DNA of 64,000 nucleotides from the sequence record KC295538; one strand, given 5' to 3'. The position numbers were made by a program, and so were the translations under genes. Below the pieces are notes generated by a model, which did not search any database, was not told the origin of the DNA, and saw nothing but the letters and a program-made list of their open reading frames with translations. Positions 14,090 through 41,237 of this stretch are shown one piece after another. Within the stretch, counting starts at the first letter, position 1, and each line of letters starts with the position of its first letter. This DNA is from Escherichia phage PBECO4.

Positions 14090-14122
14090 ATTATAGCAAA
14101 AAGGGCTGACCGAAGTCAACCC
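14090..14122 (-). promoter_or_regulatory. terminator-promoter cassette: hairpin GGGTTGAC-UUCG-GUCAGCCC embedded in TTGACT-18-TATAAT promoter
   Basis: Hairpin 14103-14122; -35 at 14119-14114; -10 at 14095-14090. Confidence 0.7.
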
Positions 14123-15879: not shown

Positions 15880-15912
15880 ATTATAGCAAAAAGGGCTGAC
15901 CGAAGTCAACCC
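15880..15912 (-). promoter_or_regulatory. terminator-promoter cassette (copy 2)
   Basis: gatgaaataattatagcaaaaagggctgaccgaagtcaaccc; -10 at 15885-15880, -35 at 15909-15904. Confidence 0.7.
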
Positions 15913-16278: not shown

Positions 16279-16340
16279 ATTGTATTCCTCATTTTCTTTG
16301 TTACATGATACTGAAAGATAAAACTGGTGTCAATGTTTTT

Positions 16341-16775
16341 TTAGATCATAGAACGATAATACTCAGGTAACTCAACATCAGTAAATTTATACCACTTAGG
16401 CTTCATCTGGAGCTTCTCAATCAAACGCTCACGAGAGGTTTTAATTTCTGATTCAGATGGTACGTAATCATTACAAAACTCAGCAGGGAAGCTGCTAATG
16501 TCGTTTACTTCAGTGTTTTGAATCTTCATACCACGACGCAAACATTCGTTGACAATATCGATATGACGCTTCTGTAAGTACAGCAACTTGTCGTAAAAGA
16601 ATGTCACATGACCTGAACCCAACAGATAAGTACTGTTAATTTTGAAATCACGTACACGCTTACGTGCTTGAACGTGTTTTTGTACAGCACCAAATACACG
16701 TGGGAGTTCACGATATTCAGCCATCAGGTGTTGGTCAGCAAGTTCTTTAACGTGTACTAAGTTAATGCGTGTCAT
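16341..16775 (-). CDS. denV: pyrimidine-dimer DNA glycosylase, T4 endonuclease V homologue
   Basis: [49 protein letters not shown] matches T4 DenV as I recall it, over the full 144 aa. Confidence 0.85.
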
Positions 16776-16803
16776 GTATTCATCCTCTCGTTTCGATGAA
16801 ATG

Positions 16804-16836
16804 ATTATAGCAAAAAGGGCTGACCGAAGTCAACCC
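16804..16836 (-). promoter_or_regulatory. terminator-promoter cassette (copy 3), upstream of denV
   Basis: -10 at 16809-16804, hairpin 16817-16836, -35 at 16833-16828. Confidence 0.7.
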
Positions 16837-16842
16837 TTTTCT

Positions 16843-17130
16843 TTATTCAATGATCCCCAACTTCACAATCTCATACCCGTCCAGATAGCCATATGAACAC
16901 TCAGGAGTTTCATAGGATGAACCATCATGGATACCCTGGCATTGACTTTTAGAATTCTCAAGAAGTCGTTGCAGTACTGATACGTCCTCAAGAACGTAAC
17001 ACAAGGATACATCTGGGTCTTCCACGATACAGTACTCCAACATATCAAACGTATCAATCGAAATTTCAACCTTGGCAAATCGTTTCTTTTCTTTATTATA
17101 CAGTGCGTACATATTAATCTCCATAATCAA
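16843..17130 (-). CDS. hypothetical protein (95 aa)
   Basis: Track ORF. Confidence 0.55.
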   Translation of the reverse strand: MIMEINMYALYNKEKKRFAKVEISIDTFDMLEYCIVEDPDVSLCYVLEDVSVLQRLLENSKSQCQGIHDGSSYETPECSYGYLDGYEIVKLGIIE

Positions 17131-17485
17131 GTTTAACTAACTTACCACCCAGATACCCAAAGTTTTCTGGCTTCACATCTGAATAGAAGAAGTCAGTACT
17201 TAACTCTGAATTTAATGCTAAAGCACACAACTCCACCCAAAATAAACCCCTATGTTGCACTGGCTTACAACGTTTCTGTACTGTTATTAAACCAGTGCAT
17301 GATGACCACAAAGTAGGGCAGATACCACTATCACTACGATTGGAGTACTGCATCCATGAACGTTCATTGAGGTTAGCTATCATTCCAGTTAGGAATAACT
17401 TCCAGCTTTTGAAGGTTGGAATCTTAATAGCGTATTCCCCAATGAGGATAACAGTTCGGGTTGCACCTTTCAAGTCTATGTTCAT
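17114..17485 (-). CDS. small protein with protein-kinase-like motifs (YAIK, DVKPEN, DYG)
   Basis: GEYAIKIP ... SDVKPENFGYLGGKLVKLDYGD has the catalytic-loop-to-DFG spacing. Confidence 0.5.
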   Translation of the reverse strand: MNIDLKGATRTVILIGEYAIKIPTFKSWKLFLTGMIANLNERSWMQYSNRSDSGICPTLWSSCTGLITVQKRCKPVQHRGLFWVELCALALNSELSTDFFYSDVKPENFGYLGGKLVKLDYGD

Positions 17486-17674
17486 ATTAATAAGAATCAG
17501 ATTCCCAGTACTCGATTGCTTCTTTCAGCAATTCTTTAGCACGTTGTTTTGCAATGCGAGCGGGAAACTGATATGTGTACATTAACTGACGCTTCACTTC
17601 ATTCAGTGAAAGCTGTTCATGGTACAGTGCATCCATCAGTCGATTACGAGTACGTAGTTTCATATAAGTTATCC

Positions 17675-18229
17675 TTATTTCAAAGAATCATAGTAAGCAG
17701 TGTCAAAGATTGGAGTCATAATAACATAGTCAATACGGTCAATGTAAGTTGAACTCCACATTTCTGGTTTGTCATATAACTGACGCTCGCGTTCATTCAT
17801 ACGAGTCAGTACTTCTTCCAATTTACTACGTGAATCCATCAATGTATTACTCGAACCATAAGTGAAGTACTCAGTCCAATGATATTCATATTCAGTACTG
17901 ATAGATTGAATAGTACCATCTTTGAAATGAGCTAAGGCATAACCTTTCTCTACAAAGTTATCAGGTGGAAGAACACCATCTGGATTAGTTTTCAATGCTT
18001 GTGCTAACTTTTCTTTAATTTCAGTTAACGTGCATACTGAACGAATGTTCTTCAGGTTTGATACTTGAAAATCACTGTACTTTCCAAAGAAAAATACACG
18101 CCAATCTTTAGGTTCATTATCAGATACGGTAGCATCAGGGTGATGGGCGAGTAAACGAAGAAGGCCAGCTTTGTGACCGTTAATGTAGATTTCATGGATG
18201 TGGTTAGCAGTTTTCTTAAAAGTAATCAT
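17675..18229 (-). CDS. hypothetical protein (184 aa)
   Basis: Track ORF, GAGGA SD. Confidence 0.7.
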   Translation of the reverse strand: MITFKKTANHIHEIYINGHKAGLLRLLAHHPDATVSDNEPKDWRVFFFGKYSDFQVSNLKNIRSVCTLTEIKEKLAQALKTNPDGVLPPDNFVEKGYALAHFKDGTIQSISTEYEYHWTEYFTYGSSNTLMDSRSKLEEVLTRMNERERQLYDKPEMWSSTYIDRIDYVIMTPIFDTAYYDSLK

Positions 18230-18276
18230 GGTAGTTCCTCGATTGTAGGGATGAGAAGTTCATCCCCTTGATAAGC

Positions 18277-18304
18277 ATTATACAGTACTGAATGTGTTTG
18301 TCAA
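18277..18304 (-). promoter_or_regulatory. sigma-70-like promoter TTGACA-16-TATAAT with CAGTACTG abutting -10
   Basis: Minus strand TTGACAaacacattCAGTACTGTATAAT. Confidence 0.65.
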
Positions 18305-18305
18305 C

Positions 18306-18701
18306 TCAAAATAAATTCATTTCATGTGCGTATTGTGGTTCAAGATAAGATAAGTTTTTGAAACTGTCTTTCAATTCTGCATCATCTACGTACACAGTAC
18401 CAGGTACATTCCCCATAGTGAAGCCAACCCAAACAGTCATGTTTCCAGTTCCTAAGCGGGGCATTGATAGCGTCCCGTCAGGTGAAACATCAAACGCTAC
18501 ACTAAAGTCATCCGTTACAACTTCCGAACCATTTTCCAGAATAATACAACCACGTTCTTTAAGCTTCTGAATGTGGATAGCAGCCTCTACAGCACGTTTA
18601 AAGTTATAATAAGACTCTTTATCCTCGAACATTGATTGTTTAACCAGACGCTTGTTTAGCTCGGTTACTTTGTGCATTTGACGCATTACTTCAACTCCCA
18701 C
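18306..18701 (-). CDS. hypothetical protein (131 aa)
   Basis: Track ORF. Confidence 0.65.
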   Translation of the reverse strand: MGVEVMRQMHKVTELNKRLVKQSMFEDKESYYNFKRAVEAAIHIQKLKERGCIILENGSEVVTDDFSVAFDVSPDGTLSMPRLGTGNMTVWVGFTMGNVPGTVYVDDAELKDSFKNLSYLEPQYAHEMNLF

Positions 18702-18940
18702 AGTTGTAGAATTTCATAAGAGCCTGGTGGTGCTGGATTGATAATCTCAGGGTATTCAGTACTGTTAGGATTACCACCAGCATTGAACTCAGCAAGTAAT
18801 AATTCGAGTTCATTCCTATCATGTACAACAAACACGCAATATCCAGTTCCTTCTTCAAGAACTGTAGTTGACCCCGCACAATCCCATACGGTATCAATAC
18901 ATAATAATTCTTTAGTGTTTTTATTACGCAACGCAAACAT
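18686..18940 (-). CDS. hypothetical protein (84 aa)
   Basis: Preferred over overlapping 18691..18993 frame on composition. Confidence 0.5.
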   Translation of the reverse strand: MFALRNKNTKELLCIDTVWDCAGSTTVLEEGTGYCVFVVHDRNELELLLAEFNAGGNPNSTEYPEIINPAPPGSYEILQLWELK

Positions 18941-18949
18941 ATATGTCTC

Positions 18950-19318
18950 CTATCGATTCGGCATATTCTTTCGTAGTCGCAAGAGAAATTCAACCACTGA
19001 CCATGTTGTAATGAAGGCTATATAAGTTGCAAGGAATCCAGTAAGAATAAATGCAACCAGCGTACTACCATTTGGGGAATCAGTTTTAATGCCGATGACA
19101 CCATCGGCTACAGTGAAACATGTAGCCATTAATGTGTAACCTACGTACAACACAAAGAAAAACTCATTCTCCATTGAAGGATAGAAACGGTTAAACACTT
19201 TATAAAATTTAAAGTACAGTAGGATTATACCAACAAAGGCATAGAATGTAAACAGTGTTGTTATAATATATGAGATTAGGTTCAAATTATACATATCAAC
19301 GCTCCGGTAGATTATCAC
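18950..19318 (-). CDS. small integral membrane protein (family M)
   Basis: Hydrophobic 122-aa ORF ending ..RLRKNMPNR. Confidence 0.65.
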   Translation of the reverse strand: MIIYRSVDMYNLNLISYIITTLFTFYAFVGIILLYFKFYKVFNRFYPSMENEFFFVLYVGYTLMATCFTVADGVIGIKTDSPNGSTLVAFILTGFLATYIAFITTWSVVEFLLRLRKNMPNR

Positions 19319-19643
19319 GTAATGTTTTAATTCGATGATACATTTTCATACCAATATTACCAAAGATACCATATCCAAGTACTAAAATGTATGCAATAAG
19401 CATAGTAATAATTACTATAGTGCCAAAACTATAATGTACACTACTGATACCCATTGTAGTTTCAACGATTATTTGAGAAACTGAAAGAATCAAAAGTACA
19501 ACTACAATTGGATGATTTGGGTACATTCGGTTGAACAACGTTTTGTACTTAAAGAAGCACAGTACTCCACCGAATAAGAAGTAAACAATGTAAATGCAAG
19601 CAACAGCATAGGCAAACATGTTAGTGTAATAAATCATTACCAA
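19296..19643 (-). CDS. small integral membrane protein (family M)
   Basis: Hydrophobic 115-aa ORF ending ..LRDNLPER. Confidence 0.65.
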   Translation of the reverse strand: MVMIYYTNMFAYAVACIYIVYFLFGGVLCFFKYKTLFNRMYPNHPIVVVLLILSVSQIIVETTMGISSVHYSFGTIVIITMLIAYILVLGYGIFGNIGMKMYHRIKTLRDNLPER

Positions 19644-19646
19644 TCC

Positions 19647-19985
19647 TTACTTTTCAGGGATATTAGAACGCCATATATCAATGCGATGAACTAGTCCAAA
19701 GAACAACCATACTGGAACGGCAGCTATCATAACAACAAATGAAAACCCAGTCAAGACCGATACCAGATTTAATTCATCAGTACTATACCCACATATCAGT
19801 ACTTCTAATATTCCCCACGTACATGCACAAAACATCAAGAATGAAATTGGGGCATCATAGTAGATACGTTCATATAAAGTAGTGTATCGGAAGAATGCAA
19901 TAATGTAGCAAAACATATAATACACCCAAACCAAAGATACTACATAAAATGATACTTTGTTTATTAATTCAAAATATTGTTCCAT
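19647..19985 (-). CDS. small integral membrane protein (family M)
   Basis: Hydrophobic 112-aa ORF ending ..WRSNIPEK. Confidence 0.65.
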   Translation of the reverse strand: MEQYFELINKVSFYVVSLVWVYYMFCYIIAFFRYTTLYERIYYDAPISFLMFCACTWGILEVLICGYSTDELNLVSVLTGFSFVVMIAAVPVWLFFGLVHRIDIWRSNIPEK

Positions 19986-19987
19986 TT

Positions 19988-20269
19988 TTACCCCAATATA
20001 TATTCAGAGAGTAATGTATTAGCTTCATCTTTGTTCTTAAGGTAATACATGTAATATAGATTCGGTTCACCATCTTTAGCACTCAAATCGAAGTACTTTA
20101 AACTATGTACTTTCATAGTAAAAACAAATAATGACTTAAAACCAATCTCACCGTACTTAATAAACAGTTCATCCAAATGAATGTAACTTTTTGATTTGGA
20201 TAATTCTTTAACGTCTGCATCAATTTCAGATAAAAGATGCTTACCTATTAAGTTTTCAAATGAACGCAT
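19988..20269 (-). CDS. hypothetical protein (93 aa)
   Basis: Track ORF. Confidence 0.6.
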   Translation of the reverse strand: MRSFENLIGKHLLSEIDADVKELSKSKSYIHLDELFIKYGEIGFKSLFVFTMKVHSLKYFDLSAKDGEPNLYYMYYLKNKDEANTLLSEYILG

Positions 20270-20331
20270 GATTTTTATCCTTTACCGCAATTTTTATGGT
20301 TTATTAAGAATACACCAGAATATCAGTTCTG

Positions 20332-20973
20332 TCAATAAAAAACTGGATCTTCTTCAGTAATTGGTATTTCTCTACGTACATCACACGAAAGAGGATCAGT
20401 AATGAATACATTCCCATCTTTATCCATCATCACATTACTTGAATGAATGTCTGGTACAAAACGCCCGTGAAACTCTTTCATGATGTTAGCAGCGACCGTC
20501 GCAATAGCAATCTCTTCAGAATTTCCACGCATATCATTCACTGAAGTAGCGTACTGACCAGCATGTGCATAAGAATATAAATCTCCAATTTTAGTACTAA
20601 CAAAGTCATCATAATTATTTTTTTGTTTAATTATAGGATAGTACTTGTCCATCTCATACCATCCAAAGTTTCCTTGTTCGTTTGCACTGTAGATCACTGG
20701 AAGAAACTTGGTTCCTGCGTTTTCAATGCAGTACTTTGCATAAGCACGAAAACCATCCCAGCGTGAAGTGGTTACTTTAAATGCACGCCCAGGATAGTTT
20801 TTATGTTCAACTACTACAGAGTACATCCCCATTCCAAGCAAAGTAAGTCCAGCAGCTTTAACTTGTGGAAAGATTACGCGTTCAGCATAAGGAATATCAA
20901 ACTCCATCGCACAACGAGTTTTTGATGGACGCAAAATGTCAATTAAAGTTTTGAATATTTCTTGCTTAGTCAT
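20332..20973 (-). CDS. protein-kinase-like fold protein (start moved to ATG 20973 with GAGGA SD)
   Basis: C-terminal DIHSSNVMMDKDGNVFITDP resembles the HxDxxxxN...D catalytic motif of atypical kinases; track start 21006 overlaps the promoter -10. Confidence 0.55.
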   Translation of the reverse strand: MTKQEIFKTLIDILRPSKTRCAMEFDIPYAERVIFPQVKAAGLTLLGMGMYSVVVEHKNYPGRAFKVTTSRWDGFRAYAKYCIENAGTKFLPVIYSANEQGNFGWYEMDKYYPIIKQKNNYDDFVSTKIGDLYSYAHAGQYATSVNDMRGNSEEIAIATVAANIMKEFHGRFVPDIHSSNVMMDKDGNVFITDPLSCDVRREIPITEEDPVFY

Positions 20974-21001
20974 TACTTTATCCTCTGTAGTTAATATCAA
21001 C

Positions 21002-21034
21002 ATCATAACAAAAAAGGCTGACCGAAGTCAACCC
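21002..21034 (-). promoter_or_regulatory. terminator-promoter cassette (copy 4; -10 TATGAT)
   Basis: Hairpin ggctgaccgaagtcaacc 21016-21033; -35 TTGACT inside the stem. Confidence 0.6.
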
Positions 21035-21042
21035 TTTTATTA

Positions 21043-21279
21043 TCATTTACAGTTTTCTATAACTATTGCACGTTTTAGTATTTTACTTTCATAAACATAC
21101 TTAAGATGACCTTCTTCACGAATACGATTGAACACATATCCTAGTTTATCTTTTAGTACTGAAGCGGTATCAATGTCAAGATTAACTTCAACCCCTCCTG
21201 TTAATTTAACTTTATATGTAAAGCTAAAAGCATCACCAGATTCAACCAATGGGACTACTTGTTCATACGTATTCAACAT
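21043..21279 (-). CDS. hypothetical protein; may extend upstream to include a signal peptide
   Basis: In-frame upstream region to 21483 encodes KSIFLSIILVLFSFNVYA but has no ATG. Confidence 0.5.
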   Translation of the reverse strand: MLNTYEQVVPLVESGDAFSFTYKVKLTGGVEVNLDIDTASVLKDKLGYVFNRIREEGHLKYVYESKILKRAIVIENCK

Positions 21280-22090: not shown

Positions 22091-22122
22091 TATTTACAAA
22101 AAAAGGCTGACCGAAGTCAACC
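22091..22122 (-). promoter_or_regulatory. terminator-promoter cassette (copy 5; weak -10)
   Basis: Hairpin 22105-22122 with TTGACT in stem. Confidence 0.5.
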
Positions 22123-22132
22123 TTTTAAATGT

Positions 22133-23668: not shown

Positions 23669-23699
23669 AGTATAAAGAAAAGGCTGACCGAAGTCAACC
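23669..23699 (-). promoter_or_regulatory. terminator-promoter cassette (copy 6; TTGACT-17-TATACT)
   Basis: Hairpin 23682-23699; -10 at 23674-23669. Confidence 0.65.
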
Positions 23700-23707
23700 T
23701 TATTTTG

Positions 23708-23850: not shown

Positions 23851-23883
23851 ATGATACAACAAAGGGCTGACCTTAGTCAACCC
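23851..23883 (-). promoter_or_regulatory. terminator-promoter cassette (copy 7; variant loop CTTA)
   Basis: gggctgaccttagtcaaccc 23864-23883. Confidence 0.55.
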
Positions 23884-27092: not shown

Positions 27093-27124
27093 ATTATAAC
27101 AAAAAAGGCTGACCGAAGTCAACC
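27093..27124 (-). promoter_or_regulatory. terminator-promoter cassette (copy 8; TTGACT-18-TATAAT)
   Basis: Hairpin 27107-27124; -10 at 27098-27093. Confidence 0.7.
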
Positions 27125-27364
27125 TTTGTTTTGAAGTTCTTGAACTAATTGTCGTACTTCGTTAATATTTTTACACTGCTTTACAGTGAAGTAATCATAC
27201 TTACGACCATAGGTTCTTGGGTCATCACCTTCCATATACTGCTGCACATCAAAGATTTGTAAGTAGGGATGCTGCATAACACGAATATTATCACTTTGAT
27301 AAATCAACATAATATCAATCCTTATATTTACACAAGCCACCAAAACTAGTTTCTTTAGCACCAC
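27119..27364 (-). CDS. hypothetical protein (81 aa)
   Basis: Track ORF; stop lies inside cassette hairpin. Confidence 0.55.
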   Translation of the reverse strand: MVLKKLVLVACVNIRIDIMLIYQSDNIRVMQHPYLQIFDVQQYMEGDDPRTYGRKYDYFTVKQCKNINEVRQLVQELQNKG

Positions 27365-40432: not shown

Positions 40433-40656
40433 ACCTCTTTTACAATAATATCGATTGATACTGGAATTGCAATTTCACTATTACATGAATATACATCAGC
40501 ACAGTACTCAATATCTAGAACTTTATAATATTTCTCAAACCCACAAATGGTAAGATTCAACGTTGACCCAACTACTGGGAGTACAGGAAATGATAAGAAC
40601 GCAATTTTAGAATGAAATTCTTCATTGATATCTTGATATAGAGTTGCAGTAATCAC
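40429..40656 (-). CDS. hypothetical protein (75 aa)
   Basis: Track ORF. Confidence 0.55.
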   Translation of the reverse strand: MITATLYQDINEEFHSKIAFLSFPVLPVVGSTLNLTICGFEKYYKVLDIEYCADVYSCNSEIAIPVSIDIIVKEV

Positions 40657-41237
40657 AATGGTAACTCCTGTAGTGGTTTCATAATACCGAGTACTGGGTG
40701 ATTTTCAATCATTGGTCGCCCTGGTACACCAGTGAGGATAACTGGGATAGAACTAATATCTTTTACATAGTTGAATCCCTCAAACGTGAACTCTTGTTTT
40801 TTCTCATTATACAATACCCATAGTATTACGTCAGCTTTTTTCTGGATATTTTTTAACTGTCGAGTACTAACACATGGTCCAAAGTCAGTCCATGATTTAT
40901 ACTTGATACCTTTTACTTCAATACGAAGGTTGTTTACCTTAATATCACATTCACCGTCACGTGCTTCATTTTGGAATGCTGGATCGATATTAAGTTTAAT
41001 ACCAGTATTGTTTTCAATTTCATTAAAAAGTACTAAAGATGCGTGCTCACACACCATACCAACAAAATGACTATGTGCATGATTAAAACCATATGGCGAT
41101 TTACTTGCTGGAGCCAAAAGTTTATATCGTTCTGATTTTTCAATCGCTTTTGCCATAAAAGAATCAGCTTCATCTTTATATAACTTAACAGTCATTTTTC
41201 CATTTTTCAGTACTAATCTATTATCAATAACATTCAT
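40653..41237 (-). CDS. hypothetical protein (194 aa), possible nuclease-like D...E.K motif
   Basis: GECDIKVNNLRIEVKG segment; otherwise no recognised motif. Confidence 0.6.
   Translation of the reverse strand: MNVIDNRLVLKNGKMTVKLYKDEADSFMAKAIEKSERYKLLAPASKSPYGFNHAHSHFVGMVCEHASLVLFNEIENNTGIKLNIDPAFQNEARDGECDIKVNNLRIEVKGIKYKSWTDFGPCVSTRQLKNIQKKADVILWVLYNEKKQEFTFEGFNYVKDISSIPVILTGVPGRPMIENHPVLGIMKPLQELPL

Follow-up and report, generated by a model that had tools for sequence, protein, structure and literature searches.

A half-size protein-kinase-like family ending at the DFG motif, encoded alongside a T7 gp0.7-type kinase in Escherichia phage PBECO4

We analyzed a 64,000-nucleotide stretch of Escherichia phage PBECO4 (sequence record KC295538), hereafter the window, which encodes on its minus strand a protein of only 123 residues with the fold and active site of the protein-kinase-like superfamily. 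Its open reading frame (ORF), designated ORF1 and located at 17114..17485, is the orthologue of gp215 of phage 121Q, a 'hypothetical protein', and falls in phrog_4301 of the PHROGs database ('unknown function'; E 5e-44). We propose with moderate confidence that ORF1 is a stand-alone, half-size member of this superfamily that acts as a phosphotransferase, is made early and serves an accessory role. A second gene, ORF2 (20332..20973, minus strand, 213 residues), is the orthologue of 121Q gp205, which is annotated as a protein kinase. ORF2 is already known; the large phage family of ORF1 is unannotated. The window derives from a 121Q/G17-like jumbo phage of the genus Asteriusvirus, whose genomes are about 350 kb, and region 16300-21100 is 97-99% identical in DNA sequence to Escherichia phages phAPEC6, slurp01, 121Q and vB_EcoM_G17 as well as to several Salmonella 'SD' phages.

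A first-pass annotation made from the letters alone had pointed to YAIK, DVKPEN and DYG motifs with canonical spacing in ORF1, and all of these are present. The translation (MNIDLKGATRTVILIGEYAIKIPTFKSWKLFLTGMIANLNERSW...FFYSDVKPENFGYLGGKLVKLDYGD; partial reading ...GEYAIKIP...SDVKPENFGYLGGKLVKLDYGD) includes the AIK lysine of strand beta3 (K21, codon 17423..17425, minus strand) and a glutamate of helix alphaC (E41, codon 17363..17365, minus strand). These are followed, within 17120..17179 on the same strand, by the D103-V-K105-P-E-N108 loop, two short strands and D120-Y-G122. The distances from K21 to E41, K21 to D103 and D103 to D120 are 20, 82 and 17 residues; the equivalent distances in PKA are 19 (K72-E91), 94 (K72-D166) and 18 (D166-D184). 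The annotation was also correct about the length of the protein, 123 residues, but not about its end, which it placed five residues after the DFG-like motif; the chain actually stops one residue after DYG, or three after the aspartate. In shuffled sequence, a regular expression for these motifs (AIK-like...DxKxxN...D[FYLW]G) has an expected count of 0.015 per window. The ORF1 motif alone nevertheless proves nothing, because the same expression also matched the unrelated ORF 40653..41237. The decisive evidence is that exactly these residues are conserved throughout the family.

To gauge the extent of this family, 1.84 billion cluster representatives (50% identity clusters) were searched exhaustively with a profile. 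The hidden Markov model (HMM) of ORF1 retrieved 1,213 clusters at E ≤ 1e-3 and 643 at E ≤ 1e-10; among the matches listed, nearly all relatives are 110-135 residues long and the match reaches their C-terminus. A tblastn search located ORF1 in myo-, sipho- and podophage lineages, 116 phage records in all. These include Asteriusvirus, the T4-like Tequatro- and Dhakavirus, Aeromonas and Shewanella phages, the N4-like phi G17, PaMx11/Ab19-type Pseudomonas siphophages, and OBP, Kc263, AH04 and RP12-type jumbo phages. Longer relatives exist, among them OBP_197 (273 residues), Kc263 gp027 (267 residues), RP12 ORF186 (209 residues), P0125, P0151 and P0156, and no Pfam domain was found in their extensions. 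The C-terminal extensions of the OBP, Kc263 and RP12 versions are unlike a kinase C-lobe. A few of the longer versions from jumbo phages carry automatic annotations as Ser/Thr kinases. None of the homologues returned from a large protein database carried a precomputed Pfam domain or a name beyond 'hypothetical', and a full-text search of the open-access literature found no published description of the family or of its constant end at DFG, an absence that is not proof.

To count conservation, 147 diverse representatives were aligned; they have a median length of 123 residues and a median of three residues after the DFG aspartate, that is, Y-G plus one. The more than 1,200 clusters likewise have about 120 residues and end 0-3 residues after DYG. 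Since length and endpoint are constant across the family, the truncation represents the family architecture and not a lesion in this phage. The earlier description of both genes as candidate host-takeover kinases or degenerate kinase folds is supported in its kinase-like part, but 'degenerate' does not suit ORF1, whose architecture of about 120 residues is conserved and not decaying. K21, E41 and D120 are invariant (147/147), while G7, R10, P23, G34, N38 and G110 are conserved in at least 98% of the representatives, Arg10 in 145 of the 147. Asp (96) and Glu (50) together account for 146/147 at position 103, Asn (100) and Ser (46) together account for 146/147 at position 108, and Lys occupies position 105 in 128. 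Within DYG, the aspartate is found in all 147, the tyrosine in 134 and the glycine in 130. Two coupled forms of the catalytic loop exist, D-K-N in 77 representatives and E-K-S in 44, and mixed combinations are almost absent. We infer from the aligned sequences that this covariation reflects compensation inside a working active site, as selection on the geometry of the active site would produce such a pattern.

The structure of ORF1 was modeled with AlphaFold2 using a 15-sequence alignment, which resulted in a pLDDT (predicted local distance difference test) value of 89.7 and a predicted template modeling (pTM) score of 0.79. From the N-terminus, the model predicts strands at 2-4, 10-15 and 18-23, the last containing K21, and a helix at 28-43 that contains E41. 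Next come strands at 58-61 and 68-71, a helix at 79-92 and a short one at 97-101, then the D103-N108 loop, strands at 109-112 and 115-118, and finally DYG. Their order is that of beta1-3, alphaC, beta4-5, alphaE and beta7-8. As modeled, ORF1 is a bilobal protein consisting of a kinase N-lobe joined to the alphaE, catalytic-loop, beta7-8 and DFG part of the C-lobe. It has the beta3 lysine/alphaC glutamate pair, the D-x-K-x-x-N loop and a DFG-type motif of the Mg-binding kind. The chain ends before an activation segment, P+1 loop, APE motif or helices alphaF-alphaI could be formed.

Comparison of this model with kinase structures aligned 100-116 of the 123 residues and gave figures of 8.8 for JAK, 8.2 for TTK, 8.1 for BRAF, 8.1 for APH(2''), 7.9 for PknB, 7.8 for Rio2, 7.5 for Bud32, 7.2 for OspG, 6.9 for Ark1 and 6.6 for HopBF1. 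A profile search of the PDB with the family returned TTK as its only match (E 0.016-0.06). The TTK alignment keeps its register over alphaE, the catalytic loop and DFG, with 'sDaKpeNFG' facing 'SDLKPANFL' and 'iDYG' facing 'IDFG'; in TTK the segment reads HSDLKPANF...IDFG. When the model was compared by Foldseek with predicted viral structures (BFVD), it matched the longer members of its own family, of which the RP12 protein is named 'Protein kinase domain-containing protein' in UniProt, and kinases of giant viruses and poxviruses appeared lower in the list. The same search also returned uncharacterized proteins of phage CBB (A0A1L2CVG3, 168 residues; A0A1L2CVI5, 194 residues) and phage RaK2 (H6X4G3, 194 residues) at E 6e-6 to 1e-4. 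These model-based matches hint at further small kinase-like proteins in RaK2-like jumbo phages.

We propose the following mechanism for ORF1. The predicted core consists of a five-stranded N-lobe with alphaC, one alphaE-like helix, the D-x-K-P-x-N loop and the D-Y-G that would bind Mg, after which the protein stops. It keeps all residues for ATP/Mg binding and gamma-phosphate transfer, namely the Lys-Glu pair, the catalytic Asp, Lys and Asn, and the DFG Asp. ATP-Mg would be bound by ORF1 in the space that separates the sheet from the catalytic loop, and its gamma-phosphate would be transferred. A lysine in the catalytic loop, as in D-x-K-P-x-N, is the signature of Ser/Thr protein kinases, and because ORF1 has this lysine, its likeliest activity is that of a Ser/Thr protein kinase, with a protein substrate as a first guess. 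Helices alphaF-alphaI and the activation segment normally bind the peptide substrate and anchor the kinase fold. Since ORF1 is without this substrate-binding lobe, its specificity must come from docking of the target, possibly on the exposed hydrophobic face of alphaE, or from self-association, or else be low. It would probably act on targets of the host or the phage, in an accessory role in takeover, defense or anti-defense.

ORF1 differs from the kinases to which it may be compared. Hanks-type Ser/Thr kinases such as TTK/Mps1 and PknB have about 250-300 residues against its 123, and ORF1 is without their activation segment and APE, helices alphaF-alphaI, HRD His-Arg and GxGxxG; it has no match to Pfam Pkinase. 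The crystal chains of OspG/NleH and HopBF1 are shorter, at 169 and 176 residues, but retain helices after the Mg-binding aspartate, and no homology to ORF1 was detected in these proteins by sequence or profile. Bud32/PRPK, RIO1/2 and the archaeal Ark1/TkArkI RNA kinases, with 173-270 residues, have C-terminal helices of their own and catalytic-loop signatures other than that of ORF1, whose profile gave no match to any of them. ORF1 likewise has no detectable sequence relation to the phage T7 gp0.7 kinase, T7K (hhalign probability 0.7%), and is without the N-terminal helical bundle and the long alphaD/alphaE region of that protein. For ORF1, T7K serves only as a precedent in architecture, being an active kinase without a classical C-lobe. 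Its kinase domain comprises residues 1-242 with the ITDP motif at about 211-216, yet it is hyperactive (PMC13645617). Because this domain ends soon after ITDP, it provides a precedent for activity without a full C-lobe. We conclude that ORF1 belongs to the protein-kinase-like superfamily by fold and active site, that it departs from that superfamily in its C-lobe and Gly-loop features, and that it is absent from curated libraries.

The genomic setting bears on when and with whom ORF1 may act. In a putative early transcription unit on the minus strand (16843..18229), four genes follow one another in tight packing: ORF 17675..18229, ORF 17487..17663, ORF1 in third place, and ORF 16843..17112. 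TAATATG stop/start overlaps link the last three. The unit is headed by a perfect match to the sigma-70 promoter consensus, TTGACA-16-TATAAT (12/12; 18277..18304, minus strand), whose function we deduce from this match and its position. It is closed by a hairpin and T-run (16812..16836, minus strand) that resembles a terminator/promoter cassette, as its 5' arm also provides a TTGACT -35 box to the unit that follows. ORF1 is thus probably made early by the host RNA polymerase from a sigma-70 promoter.

The closing element is one of eight minus-strand copies in the window of a 25-nt sequence, GGGTTGAC-TTCG-GTCAGCCC-TTTTT, for which no copy is expected by chance. The copies lie at 14098-14122, 15888-15912, 16812-16836, 21010-21034, 22099-22123, 23676-23700, 23859-23883 and 27101-27125. 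Each is a GC-rich hairpin followed by a T-run with a TTGACT -35 box in the 5' arm, and at the two copies that were checked a TATAAT-like -10 box follows 18 nt on. The element looks like a combined terminator/promoter cassette that punctuates this small-gene region.

No conserved gene neighbor of ORF1 homologues was found across the ten loci examined. ORF 16843..17112 (89 residues), which lies 3' of ORF1 and is overlapped by it, is confined to Asteriusvirus (32 records, all at least 80% identical), and the similar-sized ORFs 3' of the ORF1 homologues in the T4-like G10400 and the N4-like phi G17 are not homologous to it. In Salmonella lambdoid prophages (loci L013 and L014, 6001-6372), a homologue with 45% identity, P0014, stands alone between an Rz-type lysis gene and the terminase gene Nu1. 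This slot is a classic moron position by its gene order, and it places the ORF1 family in temperate phages as well. Together, the absence of a conserved neighbor and the solitary moron position indicate that ORF1 most likely works alone or with a host factor, as an accessory function.

Several observations weigh against an active, early-expressed kinase. The sequence link to kinases is marginal, as the best PDB profile match reached only E 0.016, also when the profile was built from the D-K-N subgroup. ORF1 itself had no match among Pfam, NCBIfam and PADLOC models, and just two of the 147 family members match a Pfam model, ABC1 or PIP49_C, and these weakly. In place of the GxGxxG loop ORF1 has K-G7-A-T9-R10-T-V with a single glycine (G-x-T-R), and the His-Arg of HRD is absent, the sequence there being Y-S-D. 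Glu and Ser replace the catalytic Asp and Asn in one third of the family. Helix alphaF is regarded as the scaffold that organizes kinase cores, and with this scaffold missing a chain ending at DFG might hold nucleotide but not turn it over. Some close relatives have shortened copies (P0006, 102 residues; TH47, matching residues 44-123 alone), which implies that the gene is dispensable for propagation. Finally, promoter-like sites in the region are no more frequent than chance, with 21 found and 20.6 expected, so that the early timing rests on a few strong sites.

The leading alternative, which we regard as unlikely, is that ORF1 is a nucleotide-binding pseudoenzyme: a binder or sponge for ATP or a signaling nucleotide, an ATPase switch like Bud32 in KEOPS, or a scaffold. 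Pure nucleotide binders usually lose the residues that serve phosphotransfer. In the ORF1 family the residues needed only for that step are conserved or co-vary, with Asp or Glu at the catalytic position and Asn or Ser in the loop in all but one representative each, and with the loop Lys in 128 of the 147. The retention of these residues argues against this alternative.

It is somewhat less probable still that ORF1 phosphorylates something other than a protein, be it a small molecule, a lipid, a nucleotide or an RNA hydroxyl, for which the aminoglycoside phosphotransferases and the archaeal Ark1 RNA kinase would be the models. The loop of ORF1, however, is the D-x-K-P-x-N of Ser/Thr protein kinases and not the D-x-H-x-x-N of the APH/ChoK type, and the RNA-ligase and tRNA neighborhoods are not conserved between lineages.

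A third alternative, for which the prospects are poorer again, is that ORF1 is one half of a split kinase, inactive alone, whose C-lobe would be supplied in trans by a phage protein, a host protein or a second copy of ORF1. The alphaE-like helix 79-92 (GLFWVELCALALNS) is strongly hydrophobic, and its equivalent in full kinases presumably packs against alphaF; ORF1 overlaps the start of ORF 16843..17112; and the minimal kinase OspG (4q5h) requires a partner, namely binding of E2~ubiquitin, for its activity. On the other side, ORF 16843..17112 is found in 32 records of a single genus while ORF1 homologues are found in 116 records, the downstream ORFs of the T4-like and N4-like phages are non-homologous, and no other neighbor is conserved. 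The OBP-like C-terminal extensions do not resemble the missing C-lobe either and have no Pfam match. ORF 16843..17112 is ruled out as the partner by its restriction to Asteriusvirus and its non-homologous counterparts in G10400 and phi G17; a host protein may be one.

That the motifs arose by chance, or that ORF1 is what remains of a longer kinase in decay, is effectively refuted by more than 1,200 clusters with a common length and endpoint, by the invariance of the motif residues and by a high-confidence model that matches kinases, even though an unrelated ORF fits the same regular expression and Pfam is blind to ORF1. The first-pass annotation had named the lack of a kinase-like fold and chance motifs as grounds for abandoning its proposal; a kinase-like fold is predicted for both ORF1 and ORF2, and the motif residues are invariant columns of both families.

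In ORF2, the D-I-H-S-S-N...I-T-D segment that had been noted in 20332..20973 is there, and the kinase reading of this gene is borne out by its homology to the T7 gp0.7 kinase. Two PHROGs families match ORF2: phrog_15752, described as 'protein kinase; inhibitor of host transcription...', with E 1e-98, and phrog_2828 with E 9e-17. In BLASTP it is 27% identical to T7 gp0.7 over 164 residues (E 6e-9), from the G-loop through ITDP, with LGMGMYS aligned to LGNGHFS, AFKV to VIKV at the lysine, DIHSSN to DMHSGN and FITDP to YITDP. No match was found in a local copy of Pfam, but all homologues carry a precomputed PF27024. Numbered from the ATG at 21006, the motifs are the G-loop G58/G60, K77, D186-x-H-x-x-N191 and I-T-D204, the stretch from the catalytic loop to the metal-binding ITD spanning 20395..20451 on the minus strand. 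G58, G60, K77, D186, H188, N191 and D204 are invariant in the family and P205 is conserved in at least 90%. In the AlphaFold2 model (pLDDT 91.0), which has a kinase-like fold, a three-helix bundle at the N-terminus is accompanied by an N-lobe, a pair of long helices and the catalytic strands, and the chain ends about 20 poorly ordered residues after ITD.

The coordinates 20332..20973 delimit the right gene. The longest frame opens at the ATG at 21006 and would encode 224 residues, but homologues start at MTK, which corresponds to the ATG at 20973. Immediately upstream of ORF2 lies a copy of the hairpin/promoter cassette with a TATGAT -10 box (21002..21034, minus strand; -10 box at 21007..21002). 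As the homologues start at 20973 and this sigma-70-like -10 box is downstream of the 21006 ATG, the 21006 start is excluded and the 20973 ATG is right. T7 gene 0.7 is expressed early, and the early-type promoter cassette that ORF2 appears to have for itself matches this timing.

ORF2 shares with T7K the G-loop, the VIKV/AFKV lysine, D-x-H-S-x-N, I-T-D-P and an end about 20 residues after the metal-binding aspartate, and differs from it in that the C-terminal shut-off (SO) DNA-binding domain is absent and in having DPL for DPV. By its sequence, ORF2 is a T7 gp0.7 (T7K)-type kinase domain without the shut-off domain, one already annotated in 121Q and published. T7K is a hyperactive and promiscuous host-takeover and anti-defense kinase that disarms many bacterial defenses by phosphorylation (PMC13645617). 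The 2026 paper in Nature that describes it includes jumbophage homologues, among them one from Escherichia phage G17, and reports that these have lost the SO domain and that the valine of DPV is less conserved in them (PMC13645617), with which the DPL of ORF2 is consistent. Phage G17 is also an Asteriusvirus and is 97.8% identical to the window in this region, and its homologue in that paper is probably the orthologue of ORF2. Like T7K, ORF2 would presumably phosphorylate proteins of the host. ORF1 and ORF2 are not paralogues: their hhalign probability is 0.7%, and the HMM of each family matches its own ORF alone in the window.

The ORF that shares the ORF1 regular expression, ORF 40653-41237 (minus strand, 194 residues), was rejected as a third kinase. 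It belongs to phrog_16175, conserved in RaK2-like jumbo phages, and its match runs through DIKVNN...TDFG. HMMs showed no relation of this ORF to either kinase family, the PDB yielded no kinase match, and its only Pfam match, a weak one, is to NOV_C, which is PD-(D/E)xK-like. The segment 'CDIKVNNLRIEVKG' in this ORF reads as a nuclease D...ExK motif, and its fit to the kinase expression is probably due to chance.

Other genes of the window were noted in passing. Just downstream of the ORF1 unit, at 16341-16775 on the minus strand, is a pyrimidine-dimer glycosylase of the T4 endonuclease V (DenV) type, which matches Pfam Pyr_excise at E 8e-15 and phrog_1183 at E 2e-59. Between ORF1 and ORF2, at 18950-19985 on the minus strand, three consecutive ORFs of 122, 115 and 112 residues encode hydrophobic, membrane-like proteins whose adjacent pairs match in BLASTP at E 3e-6 and 4e-10; on this similarity they are three tandem copies of one small putative membrane protein. 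The left end of the window (88-10100, plus strand) is occupied by a tandem paralogue array of eight ORFs in a row, 298-433 residues long and mutually 22-39% identical, with E down to 1e-40.

The PBECO4 window thus carries both a T7K-type kinase, ORF2, and a mini-kinase candidate, ORF1. The architecture of the latter will surprise kinase specialists, although its activity and role, as read from sequence and model, are those of a candidate: kinase biology holds that alphaF and the C-lobe are indispensable, and the ORF1 family keeps all catalytic residues and stops at DFG. It is conceivable, though we consider it doubtful, that this family of about 120 residues is the smallest self-sufficient protein kinase known, with a core that ends at DFG and phosphorylates proteins, perhaps promiscuously like T7K, as a portable module for host manipulation or (anti-)defense in many unrelated phage lineages and prophages. 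If so, about half of the canonical kinase domain would be dispensable for catalysis. With more than 1,200 clusters in T4-like, N4-like, siphophage, jumbo and lambdoid genomes, the family offers a ready test of the minimal requirements for phosphotransfer and may provide a new smallest kinase scaffold for engineering. A widespread, unannotated candidate enzyme would thereby join the short list of phage kinases.

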